Positions 1,414 through 64,000 of a stretch of DNA of 64,000 nucleotides are shown in pieces. The position numbers and the translations under genes were made by a program. Every line of letters begins with the position of its first letter. Position 1 is the stretch's first letter. Below the pieces are notes generated by a model. That model was given only the letters and a program-made list of their open reading frames with translations, was not told the origin of the DNA and searched no databases. Source of the stretch: Escherichia coli (GTDB lineage Bacteria > Pseudomonadota > Gammaproteobacteria > Enterobacterales > Enterobacteriaceae). The stretch is from NCBI RefSeq assembly GCF_024502345.1, contig NZ_JALDNN010000001.1, one strand, 5' to 3'.

Positions 1414-3069
1414 TTAACTCATCACGCGGTCGTCAACATACTGACGTTTATCCGGCGCTGGCGGAAAATACTGATACAGCCATGTTTCACTGATAGCGTC
1501 CCCCTGACAACGTAGATACATCCGCATATCGACCGGATCAGTGGAGTCCGAAGTCGGATACCAGTCAAACTGAATACGATAACCATCGATGGGTTCAATA
1601 TAGAGAATTTCGATTTGCTTCGCTTCCCCACTGGAAAGCGTAATCACCGGCTCAATGCCTTTTGGCGCGGCAGCTTTCAGATCACCACCAACGAAATCGA
1701 CGGCAAAACGACGCGCCCATTTTTCGGGATAGTGTTCACCTGGCGCCCAACCTTCCGGGAAACCGCCCATGCCGGTACGCGTCGCCATAACGCGCGCTAA
1801 TGGGCAATGAACAGGCGGTTGCGCACTCCAGTACAGACGATACTGGAATGCAAACTCATCACCTGCTTTTACAGCTTTTTCTGGCTGCCAGAAGCAGACA
1901 ATGTTATCCAGCGTTTCGCCCGTTGTTGGGATTTCCATCAGGCCGATGGTGCCCTTACCCCACTTGTTACGCGGTTCCACCCACAGACTTGGGCGTTTGT
2001 TATACCAGCCCATAATGTCCTGATAATGGGAGAAGTCACGATCCAGTTGCAATAAACCAAACCCTTTCGGGTTGTTGTCGGTGTAAGCATTGAACTGCAA
2101 TTTTTGCGGATTATTCAGCGGACGGCAAATCCACTCGCCGTTGCCCCGCCACATGGACAGACGATCAGAGTCATGAATTTGCGGATGAATTGTATCGCAC
2201 ATCCGACGTTCATTAGTACCGCAGCTGAACATACTGGTCATCGGCGCAATGCCCAGCTGTTTAATGTCTTTGCGCGCATACAGGTGATTTTCCACATCCA
2301 TAATCACCTGACTTTTCTCACAATGGATAGTGAACTTATAGGCACCAGTAATGCTGGCGCTATCGAGCAACGCATAAACGGTAAAGGTAGTTGCCCCCGG
2401 TTTTACCGTATCAAACCAGAAGGCGGTAAAGTCGGGGAACTCTTCTTTACTGTCGGTGTAAGTGTCGATCGCCAGGCCGCGGGCCGACAAACCGTATTGA
2501 TATGTATCATCAACGGCGCGGAAATAACTCGCGCCGAGAAATGATACTACATCACGGCGCGCCAGTTCGGGGGCTTTAAACACGCGAAAACCGGCAAAGC
2601 CGAGATCGCTTTGCCCTTCTAATTGTTTTGTATCAACACCCGCATCGTTGTATTTGAACAACTCCGGGCGAAAGTGAATTTCACGCGCCAGATGTGTTGC
2701 TGGATCTACAGAAAACATACGAACGCGGCGACGGAATCCCATTCCCATATGGAAGAACTGAGCGTCCAGTTGACGGTTCTCAACGTTATGCCAGAGCGAT
2801 TTTTCGGCGTCGTATTGAATACTGTTATAAGCCTGCGGCGTCATTGTCGCCAGCGTGTCAGGTAACGGACGAGGCGCACCACGCCACGCTGTTTGCGCTA
2901 AGTCGTGCGCCATTGACTGTAGAATGGAGAAGTCAAAACGCTGGGTTTGCCCGTCGGCAATATCAGAATCTGCCGCGAATGCCGCCTGAGAAAAAAGAGA
3001 AGCAATGCCGCTGGTACCGCACACGGCGGCCATAGCCATTGAACCTTTAATAAATCGTCTACGATCCAT
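1414..3069 (-). CDS. opgD: Osmoregulated periplasmic glucan biosynthesis protein D, Tat-exported
   Basis: 551 aa; N-terminal twin-arginine signal [18 protein letters not shown]...AFA; MdoG/MdoD family. Confidence 0.9.
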
Positions 3070-3293
3070 ACCTGAAAGTGAGTCCTTCTGGTGTTGTGAA
3101 TGGTCCCGCGCTGGTCGTTTTCAGCGGCAAGAAAGTGCTTATTTATGACCGCTCACTCTAGACAATATTTATTAATAATCCAATTGTTGAACTGAGAGAA
3201 TATGCATAAATCGGCATTTTTTTTATGTCGATGGGATGAGCCTGATTCGTTTGTAAAATCAGGCAAATTTTTGCAAAGGCGGATGGTCAGAAT

Positions 3294-4637
3294 TTAAAGC
3301 AAACCACAGCGACGTTTACTGCGTTCTTCCGCTTCCTGGTAAAGCTGGAACTCATCCAAAACCGGACAACCCAACGCCTGCTCAAATGCTTCGCGACTGG
3401 CATTACCGTGACTGCGTGTCTGCGTTTCATTACCCAGATTTGACTGGAAGATCCCCGCCGCGCTAACGGGCAAGAAATCTTCATAGGTGATGGGTTGCGC
3501 CACTACCCAACCACGTTCAATTAAGGGCTGTGGATCGTCTCCAGGATGAATCGCCTGACGATGCGCCTCACCCGAAGGCGTCAGACGGTACCGGAACCAT
3601 GCCAACCCTTGCTGACGCATTAAAAACTCACTGTCAGGAAAAGTGCGGAAGGTTTCCTGTAAATGCATTTGGTGAGTGAGATTATCCTGCCCGGTTCCAG
3701 CGTTACGCAGAAGATCATCATACAGTTGTCGCCCTTTCGGCGTTAATGCCACGCCACGCTGCTCAATTTCACCAAAGCGCGCGGTATGCGTGCCCTGTTT
3801 CTGCCCCGCAAACAACACCGTCTCTTCCAGTGCTTTAAAGCTGGTCTGGCGTAGTAAAATCGGTACCTCGCGGCGCGGCGGCCCCTCGATGAGAATTTTG
3901 GGTTCAATTCCGCATTCAGGCATCATCGACTGCACCCGGTCAATATCCAGCGTACGTGGCGTCAGGTGGTTGATATGGCATCCAGGAAAACAGACCACAT
4001 CAGCAATCAACCGATGTTCGTTGTGCAAGGCGCGATAGGTTTCTTCATCTACCGTTGCTGACTGGTGCCAGCGAAACGTTTCCAGGGCTTCCTGCACAAA
4101 CTCCTGTGCCTGTGTTTCGTTAAAACCGCCCTGCTGCTCATATTCCTCTAACAGTTGTCGACAACGTGGGGTGAAGATATCGCGCTGACGCAGAATCTCC
4201 GCCGCTTTCTGGCGCAAAATTTCGTTCTCGATAAGCTCAAGGCGGAGTAAGGAGGTAAAAACGCGGAAGGGATTACGCGCCAGAGAAGCATCATCAATGG
4301 GCCGAAATGCTGTCGAATGTACCGGCACCCCTGCCTGCGAGAGATCGTAATAGCTCACCGGGTACATCCCCATAATGGCAAACATCCGCCGAAGAGTAGC
4401 AAGCTCTTGTGCAGTCCCAACGCGAATCGCCCCATGACGTTCAACATTCAGTCGCGCCAGCTCGTCTGCATTTACCATTTTTTCGTGCAGTTGAGGATTG
4501 TTTTCCAGCACAGCCAGATTCACATCAGCTACCAGTTCCAGCAGCGTGCCATATTGCGGAACTTCTTGCTGGTACATGGCTGACATTGCCTGCGAAAACT
4601 GTTCCCGAATCTCATCCGCCGTGATGCTGTTCGCCAT
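3294..4637 (-). CDS. ydcJ: DUF1338 family protein YdcJ
   Basis: 447-aa ORF whose length and position match K-12 ydcJ. Confidence 0.8.
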   Translation of the reverse strand: MANSITADEIREQFSQAMSAMYQQEVPQYGTLLELVADVNLAVLENNPQLHEKMVNADELARLNVERHGAIRVGTAQELATLRRMFAIMGMYPVSYYDLSQAGVPVHSTAFRPIDDASLARNPFRVFTSLLRLELIENEILRQKAAEILRQRDIFTPRCRQLLEEYEQQGGFNETQAQEFVQEALETFRWHQSATVDEETYRALHNEHRLIADVVCFPGCHINHLTPRTLDIDRVQSMMPECGIEPKILIEGPPRREVPILLRQTSFKALEETVLFAGQKQGTHTARFGEIEQRGVALTPKGRQLYDDLLRNAGTGQDNLTHQMHLQETFRTFPDSEFLMRQQGLAWFRYRLTPSGEAHRQAIHPGDDPQPLIERGWVVAQPITYEDFLPVSAAGIFQSNLGNETQTRSHGNASREAFEQALGCPVLDEFQLYQEAEERSKRRCGLL

Positions 4638-4853: not shown

Positions 4854-5777
4854 ATGGAAAAAAATAGTCTGTTTAGTCAGCGCATCCGTTTGCGCCACCT
4901 TCATACATTCGTAGCTGTCGCACAACAAGGAACTTTGGGGCGCGCGGCTGAAACCCTTAATTTGAGTCAACCTGCGCTCTCTAAGACATTGAATGAACTG
5001 GAGCAACTGACGGGCGCTCGCTTGTTTGAGCGTGGTCGTCAGGGGGCGCAACTTACCTTACCCGGCGAACAATTTTTAACGCATGCAGTCAGAGTTCTTG
5101 ACGCCATCAACACTGCTGGACAGTCGCTTAATCGTAAAGAAGGTCCTAATAATGATGTCGTCAGGGTTGGTGCACTACCTACTGCGGCACTGGGGATATT
5201 ACCTTCGGTTATAGGTCAGTTTCATCAGCAACAAAAAGAGACGACCTTGCAAGTTGCGACAATGAGTAACCCTATGATTCTGGCGGGTTTGAAAACCGGG
5301 GAAATCGATATCGGCATTGGTCGGATGTCAGATCCTGAACTGATGACCGGGCTTAATTACGAACTGCTGTTTCTTGAATCGCTGAAGCTGGTTGTCCGCC
5401 CTAATCACCCGCTACTTCAGGAGAACGTAACGCTAAGCCGGGTGCTGGAATGGCCGGTCGTTGTATCACCAGAAGGCACTGCGCCACGCCAGCATTCAGA
5501 TGCATTAGTGCAGAGCCAGGGCTGTAAAATTCCTTCGGGTTGTATCGAAACGCTATCTGCTTCGCTATCCCGTCAACTTACGGTTGAATACGATTACGTG
5601 TGGTTTGTCCCTTCTGGCGCTGTAAAAGACGACCTGCGTCATGCCACGCTGGTGGCCCTGCCTGTTCCGGGACATGGTGCAGGCGAACCGATTGGAATAC
5701 TAACCCGCGTAGATGCGACGTTCTCTTCTGGTTGCCAGTTGATGATTAACGCTATTCGAAAATCAATGCCGTTCTGA
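4854..5777 (+). CDS. ydcI: LysR-family transcriptional regulator YdcI
   Basis: 307 aa from the internal Met (MEKNSLFSQRIRLRHLHTFVAVAQQGTLGRAAE), N-terminal HTH; divergent from ydcJ. Confidence 0.8.
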   Translation: MEKNSLFSQRIRLRHLHTFVAVAQQGTLGRAAETLNLSQPALSKTLNELEQLTGARLFERGRQGAQLTLPGEQFLTHAVRVLDAINTAGQSLNRKEGPNNDVVRVGALPTAALGILPSVIGQFHQQQKETTLQVATMSNPMILAGLKTGEIDIGIGRMSDPELMTGLNYELLFLESLKLVVRPNHPLLQENVTLSRVLEWPVVVSPEGTAPRQHSDALVQSQGCKIPSGCIETLSASLSRQLTVEYDYVWFVPSGAVKDDLRHATLVALPVPGHGAGEPIGILTRVDATFSSGCQLMINAIRKSMPF

Positions 5778-5814
5778 AAGGTGAAGGGATCTGTCGATCC
5801 CTCCTTTAACATTT

Positions 5815-7455
5815 TCACACCGTAGCGAAACTAACTTGTTCACCCGCTCCGCGAGGTTCTGCCGACACAGAATGTTTGTTCAGACGGAATACGTCCACCG
5901 CCTCAGTTAATCGTGCCGCCTGTTCTTCAAGGGACACCGCCGCTGCTGAGGCCTCTTCTACCAGAGAAGCATTCTGTTGCGTCACCTTATCCATTTCAGA
6001 AATCGCCTGGCTAACCTGAGTTATGCCTCTACTTTGTTCATCCGAGGCGGCGGCGATTTCCTGCATGATATGTGTGACACTCGCGACGGCATCAACAATA
6101 GTGCTCATGGTTTTCCCTGCCGTTGCCACCTCATCCGACCCCAGGTCAATTAACCTGACTGATTCACTGATCAAGCCTTCAATCTCTTTCGCCGCCTGAG
6201 CGCTGCGGCTTGCGAGTGTCCGTACTTCGCTGGCGACAACGGCAAATCCACGCCCTTGCTCACCCGCTCGCGCGGCTTCAACGGCAGCATTCAGTGCCAG
6301 AATATTCGTCTGGAAAGCAATACTGTTGATGACGGCGGTGATCTCAGAAATTTTCTTCGAACTCATAGAGATAGCACCCATCGTTTTTACTACCCCGGAA
6401 ACCGTCTGCCCGCCATCGCTGGCTTTAATAGAAGCCTCTTGCGCCAGTTTGCTGGCATGATGCGCGTTATCCGCATTCGGTTTCACCGTCGCAGTGAGTT
6501 GCTCCATGCTGGCGGCAGTTTGTTCGATAGCCGCCGCTTGTTCTTCGGTGCGAGATGAAAGGTCCGCATTGCCAGCGGAAATTTCGCTGGTGCCACGATA
6601 AATCTCTTCCGCACCCTGTCGAACAGTCCCTACGGTCATCCCCAGTGAATGCTGCATTTGCTGTAAATGACGACTTAAGCGACCGATTTCATTACGACCC
6701 GCCGGTTCATCCTTCATCGTCAGATCGCCACTAGCGATTTTTTCAATCCGTTGTGCGGCATGTTGCAGTGGACGAATGACGATCCGACGTAGCACCATAA
6801 ATGTTATCAGCGTCATGACCAGGGCAAGCACAAACGCGCCAATCATGAACATCCCACCCAGGCGGGTGCGCTGATGGGCCAGTTCCGCCAGTTGGTTGGC
6901 TCTGGTGCTACGTATCTTAACGGCTTTGTTCAAAATATCGGTATAAGCATTATCCAGCGGTCGGATCTGCTCACTTTCATGATTGATAATCGCTTCAAAC
7001 ATGCCATTTTTGGCATATTTCAACATAGGTTGCATACCCGTGATATAAGCCTGAAAGCGTTGATTTAATTCAGTGTCGAGGGCTTCATCAGCAGGTGTTT
7101 TCACCGGCCGATTCTGATAAGCACGATACCCTTGCTGCGACTGTTTAATCTCCGATTCGGCTTGCGCAATATTTCGCTTCATTGCTTCCATTTCCGCAAT
7201 ACGACTCGCAGCCCCGGCCTGAATCATATTGATCCGGGCTGAACGCAAAAAATCTGAACTGTTCGCCAACCCGGTCCGAATCTCAATCTCCGCAGTAACA
7301 TCACGCTGATCGCGATCGGCCTGCCAGAGGAAATAGCCAGCCAGAGCAGAACTTAATGCGAATAGAACTAAGATACCGCCAAGAATGCAGGCAAATAACG
7401 GAACCAGCCTGATGTGATGCAAAAAACCTAATCGCTGTGAGGGAGTTGTATTCAT
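5815..7455 (-). CDS. trg: Methyl-accepting chemotaxis protein III (ribose/galactose sensor)
   Basis: 546 aa; two transmembrane segments, HAMP and the highly conserved MCP signalling domain. Confidence 0.9.
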
Positions 7456-7495
7456 TACCGTTGTCTCTCGTCCAGGTTTACTCCTGATAGAAAGT

Positions 7496-7521
7496 CATCG
7501 GCACTTGACGGTAATTACTTA
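7496..7521 (-). promoter_or_regulatory. Candidate sigma-28 (FliA) promoter for trg
   Basis: On the minus strand TAAGTAAT-N11-GCCGATGA against the consensus TAAAGTTT-N11-GCCGATAA, about 40 bp upstream of the trg start codon. Confidence 0.45.
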
Positions 7522-7795
7522 TGACCAAAAACCTCTTTGCGTCACATTTTTACAACAATTATTGCAGAGAAAATTAATGCTATTGGAATGAAGAGAGTAA
7601 CGAATGGCTAAACTGGCTAACCCGAATGACGAAAAATTCTGGAAAACAGCACGCAATTTCGTGAAGTGATTATTTTCGTCCCTAAGGAAACCTCATAGGA
7701 TGCCTGCGGGTGCCTGAGACTTTCTGTTTTCAGGCTAACCGGGAATCAGAAAGACGAAGGCCCCGACCGATATTTCTATCAACCGAGGCCAACGA

Positions 7796-8003
<208 letters not shown>

Positions 8004-8074
8004 GGGCAAGCGCGGGGATTTTCCCCGCGCATCTGACTAGCAGATTCATTTTCTCATGGCACCCCTTTTACACT

Positions 8075-8248
8075 TCAGTTAGTGCATGTTTTTTTCGATG
8101 CACTAATAGAACCATCATTACAGACAAATTTGCCGCCTGCCGTACAGTGTGAGATCCCCCCTTTCGAACCAGAACAGGGTTTGCGCCCGGCATCGGCATA
8201 AAAGGAAACAAGCGTTCCCATAAACAAAATAAGTGCCAGTTTTTTCAT
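8075..8248 (-). CDS. ydcA: Small secreted protein YdcA
   Basis: 57-aa product MKKLALILFMGTLVSFYADAGRKPCSGSKGG... with a signal peptide; below the ORF-track length cutoff. Confidence 0.7.
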   Translation of the reverse strand: MKKLALILFMGTLVSFYADAGRKPCSGSKGGISHCTAGGKFVCNDGSISASKKTCTN

Positions 8249-8418
8249 ATAACCTCCATGGTTTATCGAATCTTATGTTCGATTTGAACGTTATACGCTG
8301 GTTTATTTTGATACCGTTGATGAGATCAAAGATCGGGTGAATTGATTAAAAATAAGCCAGATGGACGTATGGGCAAGGATTATGGTTTTATTTGTCATAC
8401 AAATAAATATAATAGGCG

Positions 8419-56937: not shown

Positions 56938-58551
56938 TCAATGCTTCACAATATACATAGTCCGACTGTACGCCACATCTTCAGGGTTATTAATGGGATA
57001 ACCTTTCAGCCACGGTTTGATTAATCGTCCATTGGTATATTGATAAATTGGTGCAATCGGTGCTTGCTCCATGAGGATTTTTTCTGCCGCGTTGTAATCG
57101 GCATTACGCGCTTTAACGGTATTTTCCGTCGATGCCTGGGCCAGAACTTTGTCGTATGCCGGATTGTTAAAGCGTGAAATATTTCCTGAATGCGTTGACG
57201 TTAATAATGTCAGGAAAGTGGAGGGTTCATTATAATCCCCCACCCATGAGGCGCGGATAACATCAAAATTGCCGGTGTTACGGCTATCGATATAGGTTTT
57301 CCATTCCTGATTTTGCAATTTAACATCTACGCCAAGGTTCTTTTTCCACATCGATGCTACAGCAATCGCAATTTTTTGATGGTTTTCTGAAGTGTTATAC
57401 AAAAGCGTCAGCTTCAACGGTTTTTGCGGACCATAACCAGCTGCGCTCAACAAAGTTTTTGCCTGCGCATTCAGTTCTTCCTGACTCATTTGTTCAAGCG
57501 GCGAAGGTTCCGGCGTAAATCCGGCGGTAACATCTGGTGTAAAATGCCACGCTGGCTTTTCGCCCGTCCCTAATACTTTTTCGGTCATCAGGCGGCGATC
57601 TATCGTCATACTTAATGCCAGACGAACGCGCTGATCTGCCGTCGGCCCTTTTTGCGTGTTAAACGCATAATAATAGGTCCCGAGCTGCGGCGGCGTATAA
57701 ACCTCCCCCGGAATATCCTTCAACAGCTTCTGATACATATTTTTCGGGAAGGATTCGGTGATATCAATATCCCCCGCGAGGTAACGCTTAGTGGCTGCGG
57801 ATTCCTGATTAATTGGCAGGAAGGTCACTTTTTGCAGTACCGTTTTGGCGTTATCCCAATAATGGGTATTCGGTACCACGACCAGTTTTTCATTGACTAC
57901 GCGTTCTTTAAGAACATAAGCGCCATTGCCGATCAGATTTCCGGGTTTCGTCCACTCTTTACCGCTTTCTACGTTGGCTTTTTGCACCGGGAAGAAGGCA
58001 AAGTTAGCGGTTAAATTCACAAACCACGGCAACGGTTTATCAAGCTGAATTTTCAAAGTATGGGCATCAACTGCGGTGACGCCAAGCTGGTCAGGCGTAG
58101 CTTTACCATCAATAATCGCCTGTGCGTTGTTGATTCCCGCCAGCGCGGCAAACCATGCAAATGGCGATAGCGTTTTCGGGTCCACCAGACGCTGCCAGCT
58201 GTAGACAAAATCTTGCGCCGTTACCGGTGTGCCATCCGCCCATTTTGCGTTATCGCGCAGGGTAAAAGTCCAGATACGGTTGTCATTACTTTTCCACTGA
58301 GTCGCAACGCCGGGGACAATTTCCCCTTTCTCGTTCTGATTCACCAGTCCTTCAAACAGATCGCGAATGACCTGAATCTCTGGCAGGCCCACGGCTTTAG
58401 CGGGATCCAGCGACGCAGGCTCATCTTTAATGTGGCGCACCAGCTCCTGCTTCTCTGCCAGTACTGTGCCGCTCGGAACTTCTGCAGCATACGAAAGAGA
58501 AATGCTGCTGACCAACAGCGCACAACACGTGACTGAAACAGAGTGCTTCAT
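56938..58551 (-). CDS. mppA: Periplasmic murein tripeptide-binding protein (OppA paralog)
   Basis: 537 aa from the internal Met, MKHSVSVTCCALLVSSISLSYA signal peptide; solute-binding protein family 5. Confidence 0.9.
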   Translation of the reverse strand: MKHSVSVTCCALLVSSISLSYAAEVPSGTVLAEKQELVRHIKDEPASLDPAKAVGLPEIQVIRDLFEGLVNQNEKGEIVPGVATQWKSNDNRIWTFTLRDNAKWADGTPVTAQDFVYSWQRLVDPKTLSPFAWFAALAGINNAQAIIDGKATPDQLGVTAVDAHTLKIQLDKPLPWFVNLTANFAFFPVQKANVESGKEWTKPGNLIGNGAYVLKERVVNEKLVVVPNTHYWDNAKTVLQKVTFLPINQESAATKRYLAGDIDITESFPKNMYQKLLKDIPGEVYTPPQLGTYYYAFNTQKGPTADQRVRLALSMTIDRRLMTEKVLGTGEKPAWHFTPDVTAGFTPEPSPLEQMSQEELNAQAKTLLSAAGYGPQKPLKLTLLYNTSENHQKIAIAVASMWKKNLGVDVKLQNQEWKTYIDSRNTGNFDVIRASWVGDYNEPSTFLTLLTSTHSGNISRFNNPAYDKVLAQASTENTVKARNADYNAAEKILMEQAPIAPIYQYTNGRLIKPWLKGYPINNPEDVAYSRTMYIVKH

Positions 58552-58608
58552 AAGTTTCCCTCTAACCGACATTAAAATTGATGCGTAATTATTTGTTTCG
58601 CCTTAAAG

Positions 58609-58645
58609 AAATGCAAACAACTTCCATCAAAAAAGTGACACAGGA
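58609..58645 (+). repeat. Copy A of a 37-nt intergenic repeat, in the pgrR-mppA spacer
   Basis: AAATGCAAACAACTTCCatCAAAAAAGTGAcACAgGA; 33 of 37 positions identical to copy B at 62599..62635. Confidence 0.7.
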
Positions 58646-58887
58646 AGCATAAAATGTTTTATGTATCAATATATTAAATCAGATTTAGTGTAAATAATAG
58701 ACGCCAAAATGCGGCAAAGCACATAGAACACCGAACACTACGTTCGGGCTTCGCACGTTCAAACCAGTTTTCGGTATCATAATCAGCATCTGTCGCCATT
58801 GTACGAAGAATAAAAAATAACCAAAACGTTGAAAGGAACTGAGAATACGTTAAGAGAAGAATTAAATTAATGTATCAGCAAGTAGTG

Positions 58888-59787
58888 CTAAACAGCACCT
58901 TTATACTTCAGCCTATCTATAAATAATGAGAATGCCGAGCCAGCATGTCGACGATGTGGATAGTACAGGTGATAACCGGGTAAATCTGGTGTGAATTTAT
59001 CCAAAACACGTATCAGTTTTTTTTCTTTAATAGCCAGCTCAACCTGATCATAAGGTAGATACGCCAATCCATGCCCATCAATTGCAGCATCAATGATCAG
59101 GTCTATCGTATTCAGTAAAAGCTGACCTTCCATGCGAACACGAACTTCACGTCCACCGCGTATTAATCTCCAGCGATTTGCTGTACCCGATGTGGGAAGA
59201 TACAAATTAATTGCCTGATGATCTATTAATTGTGACACTGACGTTGGAACACTTCGGCGAGAAAAATAATCCGGTGAGCCAACAATAGCCATTGGTATAT
59301 CTGGCCCGATTCGAATGGCGATCATATCTTTATCCATCTCCCCACCCAGACGGACGCCTGCATCAAAACGTTCAGAAACGACATCGGTCAAACCATAATC
59401 AATGGTAAGCTGAACATCAATTTCAGGATGCGATCTCAGGAATGTGCGCATGGCTGGTAACAATATCGTTTTTGCTGCATGTTCTACAGTAGTAATACGT
59501 ATTGTCCCGGATGGGCGGTTCTGCAGATCGCTCAGGGATGTCAGGGCAGAATCTATGTCATGCAACATAGGGCCAAGAACAGACAAAAGATGCTCGCCCG
59601 CTTCAGTTGGTACAACGCTGCGCGTAGTTCGCGTCAGAAGCCGCAATCCCAATCGTTCTTCTATACGGCGCACTATCTGGCTTAAAGCTGACTGCGCCAT
59701 GCTCAGGCGGGCTGCTGCGCGAGTGAAGCTACGCTCCTCTGCAACGACGACAAACGCCATCAGATCAGCGATTTCTTCACGCTTCAT
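58888..59787 (-). CDS. pgrR: LysR-family regulator PgrR (YcjZ)
   Basis: 299 aa, MKREEIADLMAFVVVAEERSFTRAAARLSMAQSALSQIVRRIEERLG; divergent from ycjY. Confidence 0.8.
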   Translation of the reverse strand: MKREEIADLMAFVVVAEERSFTRAAARLSMAQSALSQIVRRIEERLGLRLLTRTTRSVVPTEAGEHLLSVLGPMLHDIDSALTSLSDLQNRPSGTIRITTVEHAAKTILLPAMRTFLRSHPEIDVQLTIDYGLTDVVSERFDAGVRLGGEMDKDMIAIRIGPDIPMAIVGSPDYFSRRSVPTSVSQLIDHQAINLYLPTSGTANRWRLIRGGREVRVRMEGQLLLNTIDLIIDAAIDGHGLAYLPYDQVELAIKEKKLIRVLDKFTPDLPGYHLYYPHRRHAGSAFSLFIDRLKYKGAV

Positions 59788-59812
59788 TCAGTATCTCCAT
59801 ACAATCTATTAA

Positions 59813-59826
59813 TCATTTAAATGATA
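59813..59826. promoter_or_regulatory. Perfect 14-bp palindrome in the pgrR/ycjY divergent promoter; candidate LysR-type operator
   Basis: ATCATTTAAATGAT fits the T-N11-A LysR box, about 25 bp upstream of the pgrR start; followed by a GGTCTAATCA direct repeat at 59827 and 59845. Confidence 0.35.
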
Positions 59827-59924
59827 GGTCTAATCATGATTTAGGGTCTAATCAACTTAATGATCAATATCTATAGTGATATTACCAACCGTTAAAACGA
59901 ACCGACAACTCCATGAGGAACGGA

Positions 59925-60845
59925 ATGATGAATAATAAAGTCAGCTTCACTAACAGCAATAATCCAACCATCTCTTTGTCTGCAGTGATCTATTTCCCTC
60001 CAAAATTTGATGAAACCCGTCAGTATCAGGCAATTGTGGTATCTCACCCAGGTGGGGGCGTTAAAGAACAAACGGCCGGAACCTATGCCAAAAAACTGGC
60101 GGAAAAGGGATTTGTCACTATTGCTTATGACGCATCTTATCAAGGTGAAAGTGGCGGCGAGCCGCGTCAGTTAGAAAACCCATACATTCGTACTGAAGAC
60201 ATCAGTGCCGTGATTGATTACCTGACAACGCTTTCTTATGTCGACAATACCCGAATTGGTGCGATGGGAATTTGTGCCGGTGCAGGATATACAGCCAATG
60301 CTGCAATTCAGGATCGCCGCATCAAGGCCATCGGTACCGTTAGTGCGGTCAATATTGGTTCGATGTTCCGTAATGGTTGGGAAAACAATGTGAAATCTAT
60401 TGATGCCCTGCCATACGTTGAAGCGGGTTCAAACGCCCGAACCAGCGATATTAGCAGCGGAGAATATGCCGTTATGCCACTGGCACCAATGAAGGAGTCC
60501 GATGCGCCGAACGAAGAACTGCGTCAGGCCTGGGAGTATTACCACACCCCTCGCGCGCAGTATCCAACAGCACCGGGTTACGCTACTTTGCGCAGCCTTA
60601 ACCAGATTATTACCTATGATGCTTACCATATGGCGGAAGTGTACCTGACTCAGCCGATGCAGATTGTGGCGGGCAGCCAGGCAGGGAGCAAATGGATGAG
60701 TGACGACCTGTACGATCGGGCATCAAGCCAGGATAAACGCTATCACATTGTTGAAGGCGCAAACCATATGGATCTTTATGACGGCAAAGCCTATGTGGCT
60801 GAAGCAATTTCAGTATTAGCTCCGTTCTTTGAGGAAACTCTGTAA
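59925..60845 (+). CDS. ycjY: Alpha/beta-hydrolase-fold protein YcjY
   Basis: 306 aa from the internal Met; hydrolase-fold motifs including GICAGAGY around a nucleophile-elbow-like position. Confidence 0.75.
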   Translation: MMNNKVSFTNSNNPTISLSAVIYFPPKFDETRQYQAIVVSHPGGGVKEQTAGTYAKKLAEKGFVTIAYDASYQGESGGEPRQLENPYIRTEDISAVIDYLTTLSYVDNTRIGAMGICAGAGYTANAAIQDRRIKAIGTVSAVNIGSMFRNGWENNVKSIDALPYVEAGSNARTSDISSGEYAVMPLAPMKESDAPNEELRQAWEYYHTPRAQYPTAPGYATLRSLNQIITYDAYHMAEVYLTQPMQIVAGSQAGSKWMSDDLYDRASSQDKRYHIVEGANHMDLYDGKAYVAEAISVLAPFFEETL

Positions 60846-61777
60846 TGAAACATATTCAAATCCGCAATAGTGATATGGCCTGGCATATTGCTGCCAATAT
60901 TCAGTTTCCACCAAATTTTGATGAGTCAAAACAGTATCCGGTGATTATCAGCGTCCATCCTTTTGGCAGTTGTAAGGAGCAGACGTCTGGCAATATCTAT
61001 GGCAAAGCATTGGCTGAAAAAGGCTATCTCGTTCTCGCTTATGACGCCAGTTTCCAGGGAGAATCTGGTGGGGAGCCTCGCTGGATAGAAGATCCGACAC
61101 AGCGCGTAGAGGATATTAGCCGTGTTATCGATTATGCAGTAACTCTGCCATATGTTAATGCTGAACGTATTGGCGTGCTGGGAGAGTGTGGGGGTGGTGG
61201 CTATGCCATTAATGCCGCGCTGACAGAAAAACGAATTAAAGCAGTAGTGAGTATTACGGGTGTTAATATCGGGCGTCTTTTTCGGGAAGGTTTCAGCAAT
61301 TACGATCCGATTGGCGCATTGAATGCAATGGCGTCGCAACGAACCAAAGAGGCTCGTGGTGGAGAATTACAGATCAACGAATTACTTCCCGCCAGCCTGG
61401 ATGCAGCAAAAGCCCATGGACTGACCGAACGCGATGTTTATGAAGCAACTGACTACTATAAAACACCACGCGGGCAACAACCGGGAGGTGCGACAAAAAT
61501 GTTGTTCTCACATGCACAGAAAACGCTGGCCTGGGATGCCTTCGCATTTACTGAAGTGTTACTGACTCAGCCGGTGATGGTAGTAGTTGGTGAAAAAGTC
61601 GGTGCCTTCGGTGCTTATCGTGATGGACTGGAAGTCTATGGCCGGGCGATGGTTTCGCAGGATCGTCAGTTAGTTTCATTACCCGATTTCTCACATTATG
61701 AACTGTATGACAAACCGGAAGCAGTTCAGGAGGCGCTGGAAAAAGTTATTCCTTTTTTCAACACCCATCTGGGATAA
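60845..61777 (+). CDS. Second alpha/beta-hydrolase, paralog of YcjY, start overlapping the ycjY stop
   Basis: 310 aa clearly alignable to YcjY (for example YDASFQGESGGEPR, VIDY..TLPYV, GECGGGGYAINAA). Confidence 0.75.
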   Translation: MKHIQIRNSDMAWHIAANIQFPPNFDESKQYPVIISVHPFGSCKEQTSGNIYGKALAEKGYLVLAYDASFQGESGGEPRWIEDPTQRVEDISRVIDYAVTLPYVNAERIGVLGECGGGGYAINAALTEKRIKAVVSITGVNIGRLFREGFSNYDPIGALNAMASQRTKEARGGELQINELLPASLDAAKAHGLTERDVYEATDYYKTPRGQQPGGATKMLFSHAQKTLAWDAFAFTEVLLTQPVMVVVGEKVGAFGAYRDGLEVYGRAMVSQDRQLVSLPDFSHYELYDKPEAVQEALEKVIPFFNTHLG

Positions 61778-61782
61778 GTTTC

Positions 61783-62433
61783 ATGAGAAATATTATGAAA
61801 AATGTACTGATTCTTGGTGCTGGCGGTCAGATAGCCCGCCATGTGATTAATCAACTGGCAGATAAACAAACCATTAAACAAACTTTATTTGCTCGTCAGC
61901 CAGCAAAAATACACAAACCCTATCCAACTAATAGCCAGATTATTATGGGGGATGTACTGAATCATGCAGCACTGAAGCAGGCCATGCAGGGACAGGATAT
62001 TGTGTATGCCAACCTTACGGGGGAAGATTTAGATATTCAGGCAAATTCAGTGATCGCTGCGATGAAAGCCTGTGATGTTAAACGTCTGATCTTTGTTCTT
62101 TCCCTCGGCATTTATGATGAAGTTCCAGGAAAATTTGGCGAATGGAATAATGCAGTTATTGGTGAGCCCCTAAAACCATTCCGCAGGGCTGCGGATGCAA
62201 TTGAGGCTTCTGGATTGGATTATACAATTCTTCGCCCTGCCTGGCTGACTGATGAAGATATTATTGATTATGAGATTACCTCACGCAATGAACTATTCAA
62301 AGGTACGATCGTATCGCGTAAGAGTGTCGCCGCATTAATCACAGATATCATCGATAAACCTGAGAAACACATTGGTGAGAATATAGGCATCAATCAACCT
62401 GGTACTGATGGTGATAAGCCATTCTTCATGTAA
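61783..62433 (+). CDS. NAD(P)-binding Rossmann-fold protein (NmrA/atypical SDR-like)
   Basis: 216 aa with an N-terminal LILGAGGQIA glycine-rich motif; the true start may be the Met at 61795. Confidence 0.7.
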   Translation: MRNIMKNVLILGAGGQIARHVINQLADKQTIKQTLFARQPAKIHKPYPTNSQIIMGDVLNHAALKQAMQGQDIVYANLTGEDLDIQANSVIAAMKACDVKRLIFVLSLGIYDEVPGKFGEWNNAVIGEPLKPFRRAADAIEASGLDYTILRPAWLTDEDIIDYEITSRNELFKGTIVSRKSVAALITDIIDKPEKHIGENIGINQPGTDGDKPFFM

Positions 62434-62598
62434 ATCAATTATATAACTACCATCGTACTGTACTATGTGCAGTACGATTTATTAAACTTATTAAGGTGAA
62501 CTGATCAATCAGATGCGATTAACATGTGTAGAACCAGTAAGAATAAAATACGCCATGTATATAACATTACGACAATTCTAATATCTGCACATCAATGA

Positions 62599-62635
62599 AA
62601 ATGCAAACAACTTCCGGCAAAAAAGTGATACAAGA
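62599..62635 (+). repeat. Copy B of the 37-nt intergenic repeat, about 90 bp upstream of mpaA
   Basis: AAATGCAAACAACTTCCggCAAAAAAGTGAtACAaGA. Confidence 0.7.
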
Positions 62636-62723
62636 TCGATGACATAGCGTTGAAGAAAAGGATTTGATAATCCGCAAAATTTGCACAACACTGCCTGTAA
62701 TACTTCCTGAACCAGAGACGATC

Positions 62724-63452
62724 ATGACCGTAAACCGCCCACGCGCCGAACGCGGCGCATTTCCGCCCGGAACAGAACATTACGGACGTTCATTATTGGG
62801 CGCGCCGTTAATCTGGTTTCCGGCCACTGCAGCCAGTCGCGAAAGTGGTTTGATTCTGGCTGGCACTCACGGTGATGAAAACTCTTCGGTCGTCACGCTC
62901 TCCTGTGCTCTGCGGACTTTGACACCTTCTTTGCGCCGCCATCATGTGGTGCTGTGTGTGAATCCTGACGGCTGCCAGCTGGGGTTACGGGCCAATGCTA
63001 ATGGTGTGGATTTAAACAGAAACTTTCCGGCGGCGAACTGGAAGGAAGGTGAAACGGTTTATCGCTGGAACAGCGCCGCTGAAGAACGTGATGTCGTATT
63101 ACTGACAGGTGACAAACCTGGCTCCGAACCTGAAACCCAGGCGCTGTGCCAGCTTATACACCGCATTCAACCTGCCTGGGTGGTCTCATTCCACGATCCA
63201 CTGGCCTGTATTGAAGATCCCAGACACAGCGAATTAGGCGAATGGCTGGCCCAGGCGTTTGAATTGCCTCTGGTAACCAGCGTCGGTTATGAAACGCCTG
63301 GCTCTTTCGGCAGTTGGTGTGCAGATCTCAACTTGCATTGCATCACCGCAGAGTTTCCGCCCATCTCCTCCGACGAAGCCAGCGAAAAATATCTCTTTGC
63401 GATGGCAAACTTGCTGCGCTGGCATCCTAAAGATGCAATTCGCCCGTCGTGA
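62724..63452 (+). CDS. mpaA: Murein peptide amidase A (gamma-D-Glu-Dap amidase, M14 family)
   Basis: 242 aa from the internal Met, MTVNRPRAERGAFPPGTEHYGRSLLGAPLIWFPA... Confidence 0.85.
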   Translation: MTVNRPRAERGAFPPGTEHYGRSLLGAPLIWFPATAASRESGLILAGTHGDENSSVVTLSCALRTLTPSLRRHHVVLCVNPDGCQLGLRANANGVDLNRNFPAANWKEGETVYRWNSAAEERDVVLLTGDKPGSEPETQALCQLIHRIQPAWVVSFHDPLACIEDPRHSELGEWLAQAFELPLVTSVGYETPGSFGSWCADLNLHCITAEFPPISSDEASEKYLFAMANLLRWHPKDAIRPS

Positions 63453-64000
63453 ACTGAAGCGCCGGTTCCACATCTACCGCCAGCCAGGTCGGTCCGTCAA
63501 GATCGGCGAAACTGACCTGCGGCACCAGCGGTAAAGCGGCGCTAATGGCACGAGAGGTACACAACATGCAGCCCAGCATCAGACGAAAACCTTGTGCACG
63601 CGCTTCAGTCGCCAGCGCCAGCGCTTCCGTCAGCCCCCCGGTTTTATCGAGCTTAATGTTAACCATCTCATAGCGCCCTTTCAGCGCCTTCAGATTGCTA
63701 CGAGTATGACAACTTTCATCAGCACAAATCGGTAACGGATGAATAAAATTCTCCAGTGCCGCATCGTCCTGCGCAGGAAGGGGTTGTTCAAGCATCGCAA
63801 CGCCTAAATCCGCCAATAGCTGGCAACGCGCCGCCAACCCTTCTGCACGCCAGGATTCATTTGCATCAACGATCAGCGTGGCATCGGGCACAGCTGTGCG
63901 AATTGCCACCATCCGCTCACTGATAAGATGGTTATCCAGCTTCACTTTCAGTAATTTCGCGCCGGCCTGCCAGAGTGTTGATGCACTATTGGCCATCTGA
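63427..64000 (-). CDS. ycjG: L-Ala-D/L-Glu epimerase (enolase superfamily), C-terminal part; 5' end outside the window
   Basis: Translation ...VKLDNHLISERMVAIRTAVPDATLIVDANESW... is the muconate-lactonizing-enzyme-like fold; the frame is open to the window edge; 26-bp convergent overlap with mpaA. Confidence 0.8.
   Translation of the reverse strand, partial: QMANSASTLWQAGAKLLKVKLDNHLISERMVAIRTAVPDATLIVDANESWRAEGLAARCQLLADLGVAMLEQPLPAQDDAALENFIHPLPICADESCHTRSNLKALKGRYEMVNIKLDKTGGLTEALALATEARAQGFRLMLGCMLCTSRAISAALPLVPQVSFADLDGPTWLAVDVEPALQFTTGELHL

Follow-up and report, generated by a model that had tools for sequence, protein, structure and literature searches.

Two putative cysteine hydrolases and a reductase between pgrR and mpaA of Escherichia coli: the three-gene form of a probably mobile cassette that is decayed in K-12

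Gene content of the pgrR-mpaA interval and its decay in E. coli

In Escherichia coli K-12 the gene of the LysR-type regulator PgrR and the murein tripeptide amidase gene mpaA are separated by the alpha/beta-hydrolase gene ycjY and by the short remnants ymjD and ymjC. The stretch analysed here (the window, 64,000 nucleotides of E. coli contig NZ_JALDNN010000001.1, assembly GCF_024502345.1) carries in the same interval three complete open reading frames (ORFs), i.e. ycjY, a second alpha/beta-hydrolase gene for which we use the label hyd2, and the gene of an NAD(P)H-binding atypical short-chain dehydrogenase/reductase (SDR). Together with the divergently oriented pgrR we refer to them as the cassette (Table 1). 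An initial annotation, made from the sequence of the window, had described the three genes as an intact and ancestral operon, co-oriented with mpaA and linked to murein-peptide catabolism by position and regulator. Both ORFs downstream of ycjY were confirmed at full length: the product of hyd2 is 41% identical to YcjY, the third product is an NAD(P)-binding protein (Pfam NAD_binding_10, 183.9 bits), and every gene after pgrR lies on the plus strand, as does mpaA. Strong homology was seen for all three proteins, both hydrolases matching alpha/beta-hydrolase families of Pfam.

Table 1. Features of the pgrR-mpaA region and its flanks (coordinates of the window)
Feature	Position	Strand	Remarks
pgrR (ycjZ), LysR-type regulator	58888..59787	-	divergent from ycjY; Pfam HTH_1 and LysR_substrate; counted within the cassette
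ycjY, alpha/beta hydrolase 1, 306 aa	59925..60845	+	alternative start 59913; nucleophile motif G-I-C-A-G; name from the K-12 annotation
hyd2, alpha/beta hydrolase 2, 310 aa	60845..61777	+	
hyd2 codon of A33V	60941-60943	+	
hyd2 codon of V114E	61184-61186	+	
hyd2 codon of putative catalytic Cys115	61187-61189	+	
hyd2 codon of His284	61694-61696	+	
NAD(P)H-binding atypical SDR (reductase), 216 aa	61783..62433	+	NAD_binding_10
mpaA, murein tripeptide amidase	62724..63452	+	Pfam Peptidase_M14; resident gene outside the cassette
left 37-nt direct repeat, AAATGCAAACAACTTCCATCAAAAAAGTGACACAGGA	58609..58645		duplicated piece of the ancestral mppA-mpaA spacer; left edge of the putative insert
right 37-nt direct repeat	62599..62635		right edge of the putative insert
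non-coding left end of the putative insert	58646..58887		no homologue in cassettes of other genera
conserved candidate operator region, pgrR-ycjY spacer	59812..59852		ATCA-N6-TGATA, 59812-59826; GTCTAAT, 59846-59852
hairpin, 12-bp stem, just 3' of the reductase stop codon	62452..62478	+	RNA fold; homology to Klebsiella and Serratia

The genes ycjY and hyd2 overlap by 1 nt (TAATG), which suggests that hyd2 is translationally coupled to ycjY. The reductase follows hyd2 after a gap of 5 nt if it begins at 61783, a start that agrees with the Klebsiella start in a start-codon comparison, or of 17 nt if it begins at 61795, the start used by the RefSeq annotators (212 aa). One predicted protein of 489 aa, from a read-archive assembly, joins the hyd2 and reductase domains; this fusion probably represents an indel or an assembly artefact at the intergenic gap.

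At the level of ORFs the cluster of the window is indeed intact, but its hyd2 bears a substitution, V114E, beside the putative catalytic cysteine. Relative to the nearest allele, hyd2 of the window carries two non-synonymous changes (A33V and V114E) and no synonymous one. Of the 64 aligned family members (see below), 61 have I, V or L at residue 114, which directly precedes the cysteine, and the only glutamate at this position is that of the window sequence itself. A 45-mer containing E114 was found in none of 5426 complete E. coli genomes, as against 869 genomes for a control 45-mer with the V114 allele. V114E may impair hyd2 of the window; it could be a genuine mutation, perhaps an inactivating one, or an error of sequencing.

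Alignment of the interval with K-12 at base level reveals deletion scars in line with the initial annotation, which had named ymjC and ymjD as pseudogene remnants: instead of identical intact genes, K-12 holds ycjY and a 138-bp pseudogene, and lacks window positions 60900-61766, 61783-61794 and 61934-62598. The first of these deletions (867 bp) preserves the reading frame; what remains is ymjD, an ORF of 21 codons composed of the first 18 and the last 3 codons of hyd2. The second removes 12 bp (ATGAGAAATATT) and with them the first four codons from the ancestral reductase start, and the third (665 bp) leaves the 138 bp of ymjC. The three-gene state is ancestral to that of K-12, because the scars retain 55 nt of the 5' end and 11 nt of the 3' end of hyd2 and because orthologous three-gene operons are present in other genera. 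The right junction of the 665-bp deletion (62598/62599) coincides exactly with the first base of the right direct-repeat copy, which may be due to chance (the junction shows AAT microhomology) or to a mechanistic link.

The locus was present in 5418 of the 5426 complete E. coli genomes when these were searched by megablast with positions 59000-63500. Three main allele states were distinguished, with all three genes, with ycjY and the reductase, or with ycjY and the 138-bp pseudogene of K-12 (annotated as "NAD-dependent dehydratase"). The intermediate allele has only the 867-bp and 12-bp deletions; the 12 bases of the latter are kept in three-gene alleles and are missing from both the K-12 and the intermediate alleles. 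At least 80% of hyd2 was covered in 1271 genomes (23%), a figure that is an upper bound for truly intact three-gene alleles, as it may include frameshifted copies. About 1640 genomes (about 30%) keep ycjY and the reductase without hyd2, and about 2500 (about 46%) are K-12-like or more reduced. In total, hyd2 is lost in about 77% of the genomes and the reductase in about 46%, while mpaA is retained.

Three-gene loci are disrupted in other ways as well. In strain STS63-1-E ycjY carries a frameshift (coordinates of the retrieved locus 1680-2601), in the O157:H7 strain 380-94 hyd2 is frameshifted in a G-run at the catalytic motif (2501-3431), and in strain COL60J an IS1 element is inserted at the 3' end of hyd2 (3489-4186). 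The cassette is decaying in E. coli through deletions, frameshifts and IS1 insertion, with K-12 at a late and the window at an early stage. As many independent disruptions are seen, relaxed selection on hyd2 and the reductase within E. coli is suggested. Both large deletions of K-12 are also found in the divergent Escherichia sp. E1V33 (96.6% identical; retrieved-locus coordinates 5446-8301), so the deleted allele either predates the diversification of E. coli or has crossed clades by recombination.

Distribution of the cassette and its position between mppA and mpaA

Homologues of hyd2 are numerous (3375 at E <= 1e-10). The best matches outside E. coli come from Serratia and Klebsiella (84-87% identical), and matches of 76-82% identity are found in Mesorhizobium, Afipia, Agrobacterium, Sphingobium, Brevundimonas and a metagenome-assembled genome of Labilithrix. 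The gene neighbourhoods were surveyed by tblastn with the window proteins on 36 loci from one-genome-per-species contigs, together with pre-called gene neighbourhoods. A recurrent block emerged, in which a PgrR orthologue is divergent from a YcjY orthologue that is followed by a hyd2 orthologue; it is present in Serratia, Klebsiella, Citrobacter and many Alphaproteobacteria (Afipia, Agrobacterium and Rhizobium among others). The same NAD_binding_10 reductase follows hyd2 in eight taxa, namely E. coli, S. marcescens, K. variicola, Pseudocitrobacter, Afipia carboxidovorans, Afipia sp. 64-13, Hyphomicrobium sp. and Rhizobium sp. P40RR-XXII. Protein identities to the window amount to 73-88% for PgrR, 80-93% for YcjY, 77-88% for hyd2 and 66-83% for the reductase. 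None of mpaA, mppA and ycjG was detected by tblastn beside the cassette in about 30 non-Escherichia loci; among about 40 loci in all, MpaA or MppA accompanied it in Escherichia alone. Judged by these neighbourhoods, the conserved unit consists of pgrR, ycjY and hyd2, with the reductase as an optional member.

Conservation extends to the spacer between pgrR and ycjY. In an alignment of 11 cassettes, with E. coli, Afipia, Agrobacterium and Microvirga among their hosts, the columns of ATCA-N6-TGATA and GTCTAAT are invariant. The former is a box of the LysR T-N11-A type and, lying in the spacer of a divergent LysR-type regulator, a candidate operator. The cassettes of E. coli and Rhizobiales share this operator and a protein identity of about 80%, and a preprint points to an unusual degree of conservation of PgrR between E. 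coli and Rhizobium (bioRxiv 10.1101/2024.01.29.577838).

The operon extends further in S. marcescens and K. variicola, with one or two classical SDRs (adh_short), a Flavodoxin_4 protein and a reductase of the old-yellow-enzyme (OYE) family. Directly 3' of the reductase stop codon in E. coli, 72 nt (62434-62505) are homologous to the Klebsiella/Serratia spacer that precedes the fourth gene (adh_short), and in E. coli this spacer keeps the hairpin and the ribosome-binding site, whereas the ATG of the fourth gene is gone. The E. coli cassette is therefore a truncated form of a longer operon. Klebsiella and Serratia share the hairpin itself (centroid -16.2 kcal/mol, z -3.1), which lies between the reductase and adh_short in the former and between two adh_short genes in the latter, with compensatory changes in its outer pairs; possible roles are those of an attenuator, a processing site or a stabiliser. 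No Rfam model matched within positions 58300-63000.

Copies of the cassette are also carried by plasmids (47 plasmid records), among them a conjugative IncF plasmid of K. pneumoniae, with an IS110 element after the reductase, and an At plasmid of Agrobacterium. The hydrolase family is also represented on several E. coli plasmids (78-137 kb, PLSDB), by a more distantly related protein with about 51% identity to hyd2. A recent transfer of the cassette is ruled out by the saturation of synonymous sites between genera: dS between the E. coli and the Klebsiella/Serratia cassettes is 1.4-2.9, similar to that of mpaA between genera, and dN/dS of 0.02-0.07 indicates strong purifying selection. From these two values it follows that transfers are old and that the proteins are strongly constrained wherever they persist.

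Citrobacter, K. oxytoca and S. liquefaciens have mppA and mpaA side by side in divergent orientation, with ycjG, tpx and tyrR next in line and no cassette between the first two. The 184-bp spacer of Citrobacter aligns twice to the window, at 58436-58638 and at 62599-62821, with 30 nt of Citrobacter sequence shared by both matches, and a repeat search found the two copies of the direct repeat to be identical at 33 of 37 positions and 3990 bp apart. Identity of MpaA to that of the window follows the species tree (Citrobacter 92%, Enterobacter 84%, Klebsiella 81%, Serratia 73%), unlike that of S. marcescens YcjY, which reaches 93%. The simplest reading of this arrangement is a single insertion event in the ancestry of Escherichia, by which a block of ~3.95 kb entered the mppA-mpaA spacer and the target was duplicated. 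Because the cassette occurs elsewhere without mpaA, the site is empty in three genera and the block is flanked by duplicated spacer sequence, the adjacency of mpaA is best seen as the outcome of this putative insertion and not as an ancestral functional cluster. The term ancestral operon thus fits the relation of the three-gene state to K-12 but not the neighbourhood of mpaA.

Neither integrase nor transposase nor tRNA gene was found at either end of the block. DNA homology to other cassettes ends at the pgrR stop codon. Within the left end a short fragment (~58716-58790, minus strand) is called a pseudogene remnant of epoxyqueuosine reductase QueH by RefSeq in several strains, and possibly represents a trace of its former surroundings in the donor. 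The G+C content of the cassette (about 0.40-0.53, vs 0.52-0.55 in mpaA/ycjG) is a weak sign of foreign origin, on which we do not rely.

Protein families, proposed function and competing explanations

Both hydrolases were assigned by Pfam to the alpha/beta-hydrolase clan and to no specific family within it. There are weak matches to the peptidase families S9, S15 and S33; dienelactone hydrolase (PF01738) scores 31.8-34.5 bits against a cut-off of 21, but only positions 10-129 of its 217 profile positions are aligned, and Peptidase_S15 and Hydrolase_4 score equally or higher. By fold the neighbours are esterases, thioesterases and lactone-forming hydrolases, the closest being thioesterases and feruloyl or monoacylglycerol esterases. 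The structure PDB 5xb6 is that of YcjY; nothing relevant to this entry was found in the searched literature.

For an inspection of the active site, 62 full-length representatives from a library clustered at 50% were aligned with YcjY and hyd2 (64 sequences). The nucleophile position is occupied by Cys in 57 of 64 sequences, including both window hydrolases, and by Ser in two; the C-terminal catalytic His284 is present in 58, and Y52, R130 and an acidic residue at position 128 (D/E) in all 64. The latter is the sole invariant acidic residue between Cys and His. YcjY and hyd2 accordingly fall within an alpha/beta-hydrolase family with a cysteine nucleophile, and two invariant arginines along with many invariant polar residues suggest an anionic substrate. 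The third protein matches PF13460 over the whole profile (positions 1-184 of 184; cut-off 27.2) and has the dinucleotide motif GAGGQIA at residues 9-15 of its 212-aa form.

Taking these lines together, we consider it probable, though well short of certain, that the interval is the intact form of a horizontally spread cassette, comprising pgrR and a divergent operon of two cysteine hydrolases and an SDR, with a small-molecule role that is unrelated to mpaA. Under the mechanism we propose, PgrR would bind the conserved box, repress itself, sense the substrate or product and control the operon. Each hydrolase would attack a small compound, probably an anion, at an ester, lactone or thioester bond, its Cys-His(-Asp/Glu) triad forming a thioester acyl-enzyme, and the reductase would then reduce a carbonyl, enone or quinone product. 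The closest analogy to such a scheme, a formal one, would be the succession of dienelactone hydrolase and maleylacetate reductase controlled by a LysR regulator. Generic names, all under their cut-offs, were the only result of an NCBIfam search with PgrR and the Serratia downstream genes.

As to the regulator, secondary literature on K-12 places ycjY-ymjDC-mpaA and ycjG in the PgrR regulon (PMC5934670) and describes PgrR autoregulation (PMC10505187). The control of mpaA would most readily be explained as a by-product of the insertion, by read-through from the cassette promoter or by capture by it, and not as a sign of shared biochemistry. A promoter scan found 8 promoters where 9.9 were expected from shuffled sequence, with no candidate mpaA promoter in the 290-bp spacer. 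It is conceivable, with the balance tilted slightly against it, that PgrR is the dedicated sensor of an ancient mobile two-cysteine-hydrolase cassette, which would act on a widespread small molecule, and not natively a regulator of peptidoglycan recycling, its control of mpaA stemming from the landing site and the K-12 deletions having brought mpaA nearer to the cassette promoter.

Several points weigh against an inserted small-molecule cassette. Concerning the enzymes, the position after G249, where the canonical acid would follow strand beta-7, varies (S, D, E, G or T, with S in YcjY), and the proposal of D/E128 as third member of the triad is a guess from the alignment. A specific functional family was not obtained from any library; the top NCBIfam match, the UilS lactonase (NF047920), scores 84.2 bits with YcjY and 76.4 bits with hyd2 against a cut-off of 400. 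Concerning the insertion, the empty-site comparison covers three genera, Citrobacter, Klebsiella and Serratia, and repeated precise excision between the repeats in other genera would be an alternative, which is less parsimonious because more events are needed. The high protein identity between genera owes as much to constraint as to mobility. Finally, over-expression of ycjY leads to filamentation and a block of cell division (PMC3614548), and ycjG is reported to be under PgrR control as well; both would fit a role in the cell wall.

These last two observations also speak for the view that the three genes belonged to the locus of murein-peptide recycling from the outset and act on peptides derived from peptidoglycan, e.g. 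as a cysteine peptidase/amidase pair with a reductase, in a pathway shared with mppA, mpaA and ycjG under PgrR. The weak matches to peptidase families and the co-oriented adjacency to mpaA point in the same direction. As to the link to murein-peptide catabolism drawn in the initial annotation, PgrR control of ycjY-ymjDC-mpaA in K-12 is on record (PMC5934670); a functional link from position is not supported, since outside Escherichia the cassette occurs without mpaA. Conversely, the mppA-mpaA-ycjG-tpx locus is complete without the cassette in Citrobacter, Klebsiella and Serratia, and the duplicated spacer flanks the E. coli block. The recurrent partners of the hydrolases are oxidoreductases and not peptide-handling enzymes, and the frequent loss of hyd2 and the reductase in E. 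coli stands against the retention of mpaA. In the searched literature there is no report of an enzymatic activity of the cassette proteins on murein peptides. We regard a native murein role as unlikely.

Quorum quenching, in which the hydrolases would open N-acyl-homoserine lactone (AHL) rings like UilS and AidA and the reductase(s) would reduce 3-oxo-acyl chains, appears quite unlikely. UilS, an experimentally established AHL lactonase (PMC11633161), is the best NCBIfam match of both hydrolases, and the cassette is common in the AHL-rich Serratia, Rhizobium and Agrobacterium, but the scores are far below the cut-off, the invariant arginines and polar residues suggest an anionic substrate instead of a neutral AHL, and the nearest fold neighbours are the thioesterases and esterases named above. 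A synthase or oligomer hydrolase of short-chain poly-3-hydroxybutyrate, as predicted for YcjY from its G-x-C-x-G box in work cited in PMC3709699, is very improbable. The alignment does confirm the cysteine lipase box, and the Serratia downstream adh_short genes resemble 3-hydroxybutyrate dehydrogenases at a generic level. On the other side, there is no Pfam match to the polyhydroxyalkanoate (PHA) synthase PhaC, the top 60 fold matches include no PHA synthase, and with 18.7-25.9 bits the NCBIfam depolymerase model stays below its cut-off of 150. Every dehydrogenase match is under its cut-off, and the reductase of the cassette is an NAD_binding_10 protein similar to BLVRB and ChuY rather than a 3-hydroxybutyrate dehydrogenase.

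The three-gene cluster as such is already annotated in public genomes, and the presence or absence of ymjC has been noted in pangenome work (PMC9602453). For the insertion and the conservation of the pgrR cassette across phyla no description was found in the searched literature, and the former appears to be new. An accessory operon that is intact in some E. coli and decayed in K-12 is ordinary in itself; here, the K-12 names and regulon (PgrR as "regulator of peptidoglycan recycling", ycjY-ymjDC-mpaA) were defined on a decayed, chimeric locus. Should the cassette be foreign to the murein locus, the presumed cell-wall role of YcjY would be unfounded and the real PgrR ligand would still have to be found. 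Three-gene strains, or Serratia and Klebsiella with their longer operon, would then be the right systems for finding the substrate of the hydrolase family with its thousands of homologues. Knowledge of that substrate would reveal a new step of catabolism or detoxification with a broad distribution.

Comparison with known systems

The closest counterparts of the window hydrolases, similar over their full length in both sequence and fold, are the uncharacterised COG1073 alpha/beta hydrolases YcjY (PDB 5xb6) and PA2218 (PDB 2hdw), a match that provides a family name but not a function. Relative to YcjY, hyd2 forms a separate orthologous group that is better conserved across phyla than their mutual identity suggests. 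For the reductase the nearest counterpart is the Shigella protein of PDB 3qvo, with about 98% identity and no assigned substrate; ChuY/ShuY and biliverdin-IX-beta/flavin reductase (BLVRB) are distant relatives, with weak matches (E 1e-6 to 1e-5).

With respect to the insertion, the locus resembles small genomic islets flanked by direct repeats, in that a foreign block would occupy a conserved spacer between 37-nt target duplications and the site is empty in related genera; it differs from them in the lack of integrase, transposase and tRNA at the ends of the E. coli block. Target duplications of typical transposons are shorter than 37 nt.

Among functional analogues, the lactonases UilS of Serratia marcescens and AidA provide the best curated-family match, which is full-length for hyd2; by score, however, YcjY and hyd2 are not members of the UilS family, and S. 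marcescens possesses the cassette besides uilS as different genes. Dienelactone hydrolase is likewise an alpha/beta hydrolase with a cysteine nucleophile, and the conserved arginines of the YcjY/hyd2 family could hold a substrate carboxylate, but the triad acid after strand beta-7 is not conserved in this family. Dienelactone hydrolase followed by maleylacetate reductase is the sequence of steps in the chlorocatechol and hydroxyquinol pathways, and the operons encoding this pair share with the cassette an adjacent NAD(P)H reductase gene and a divergent LysR regulator (ClcR, CatM).

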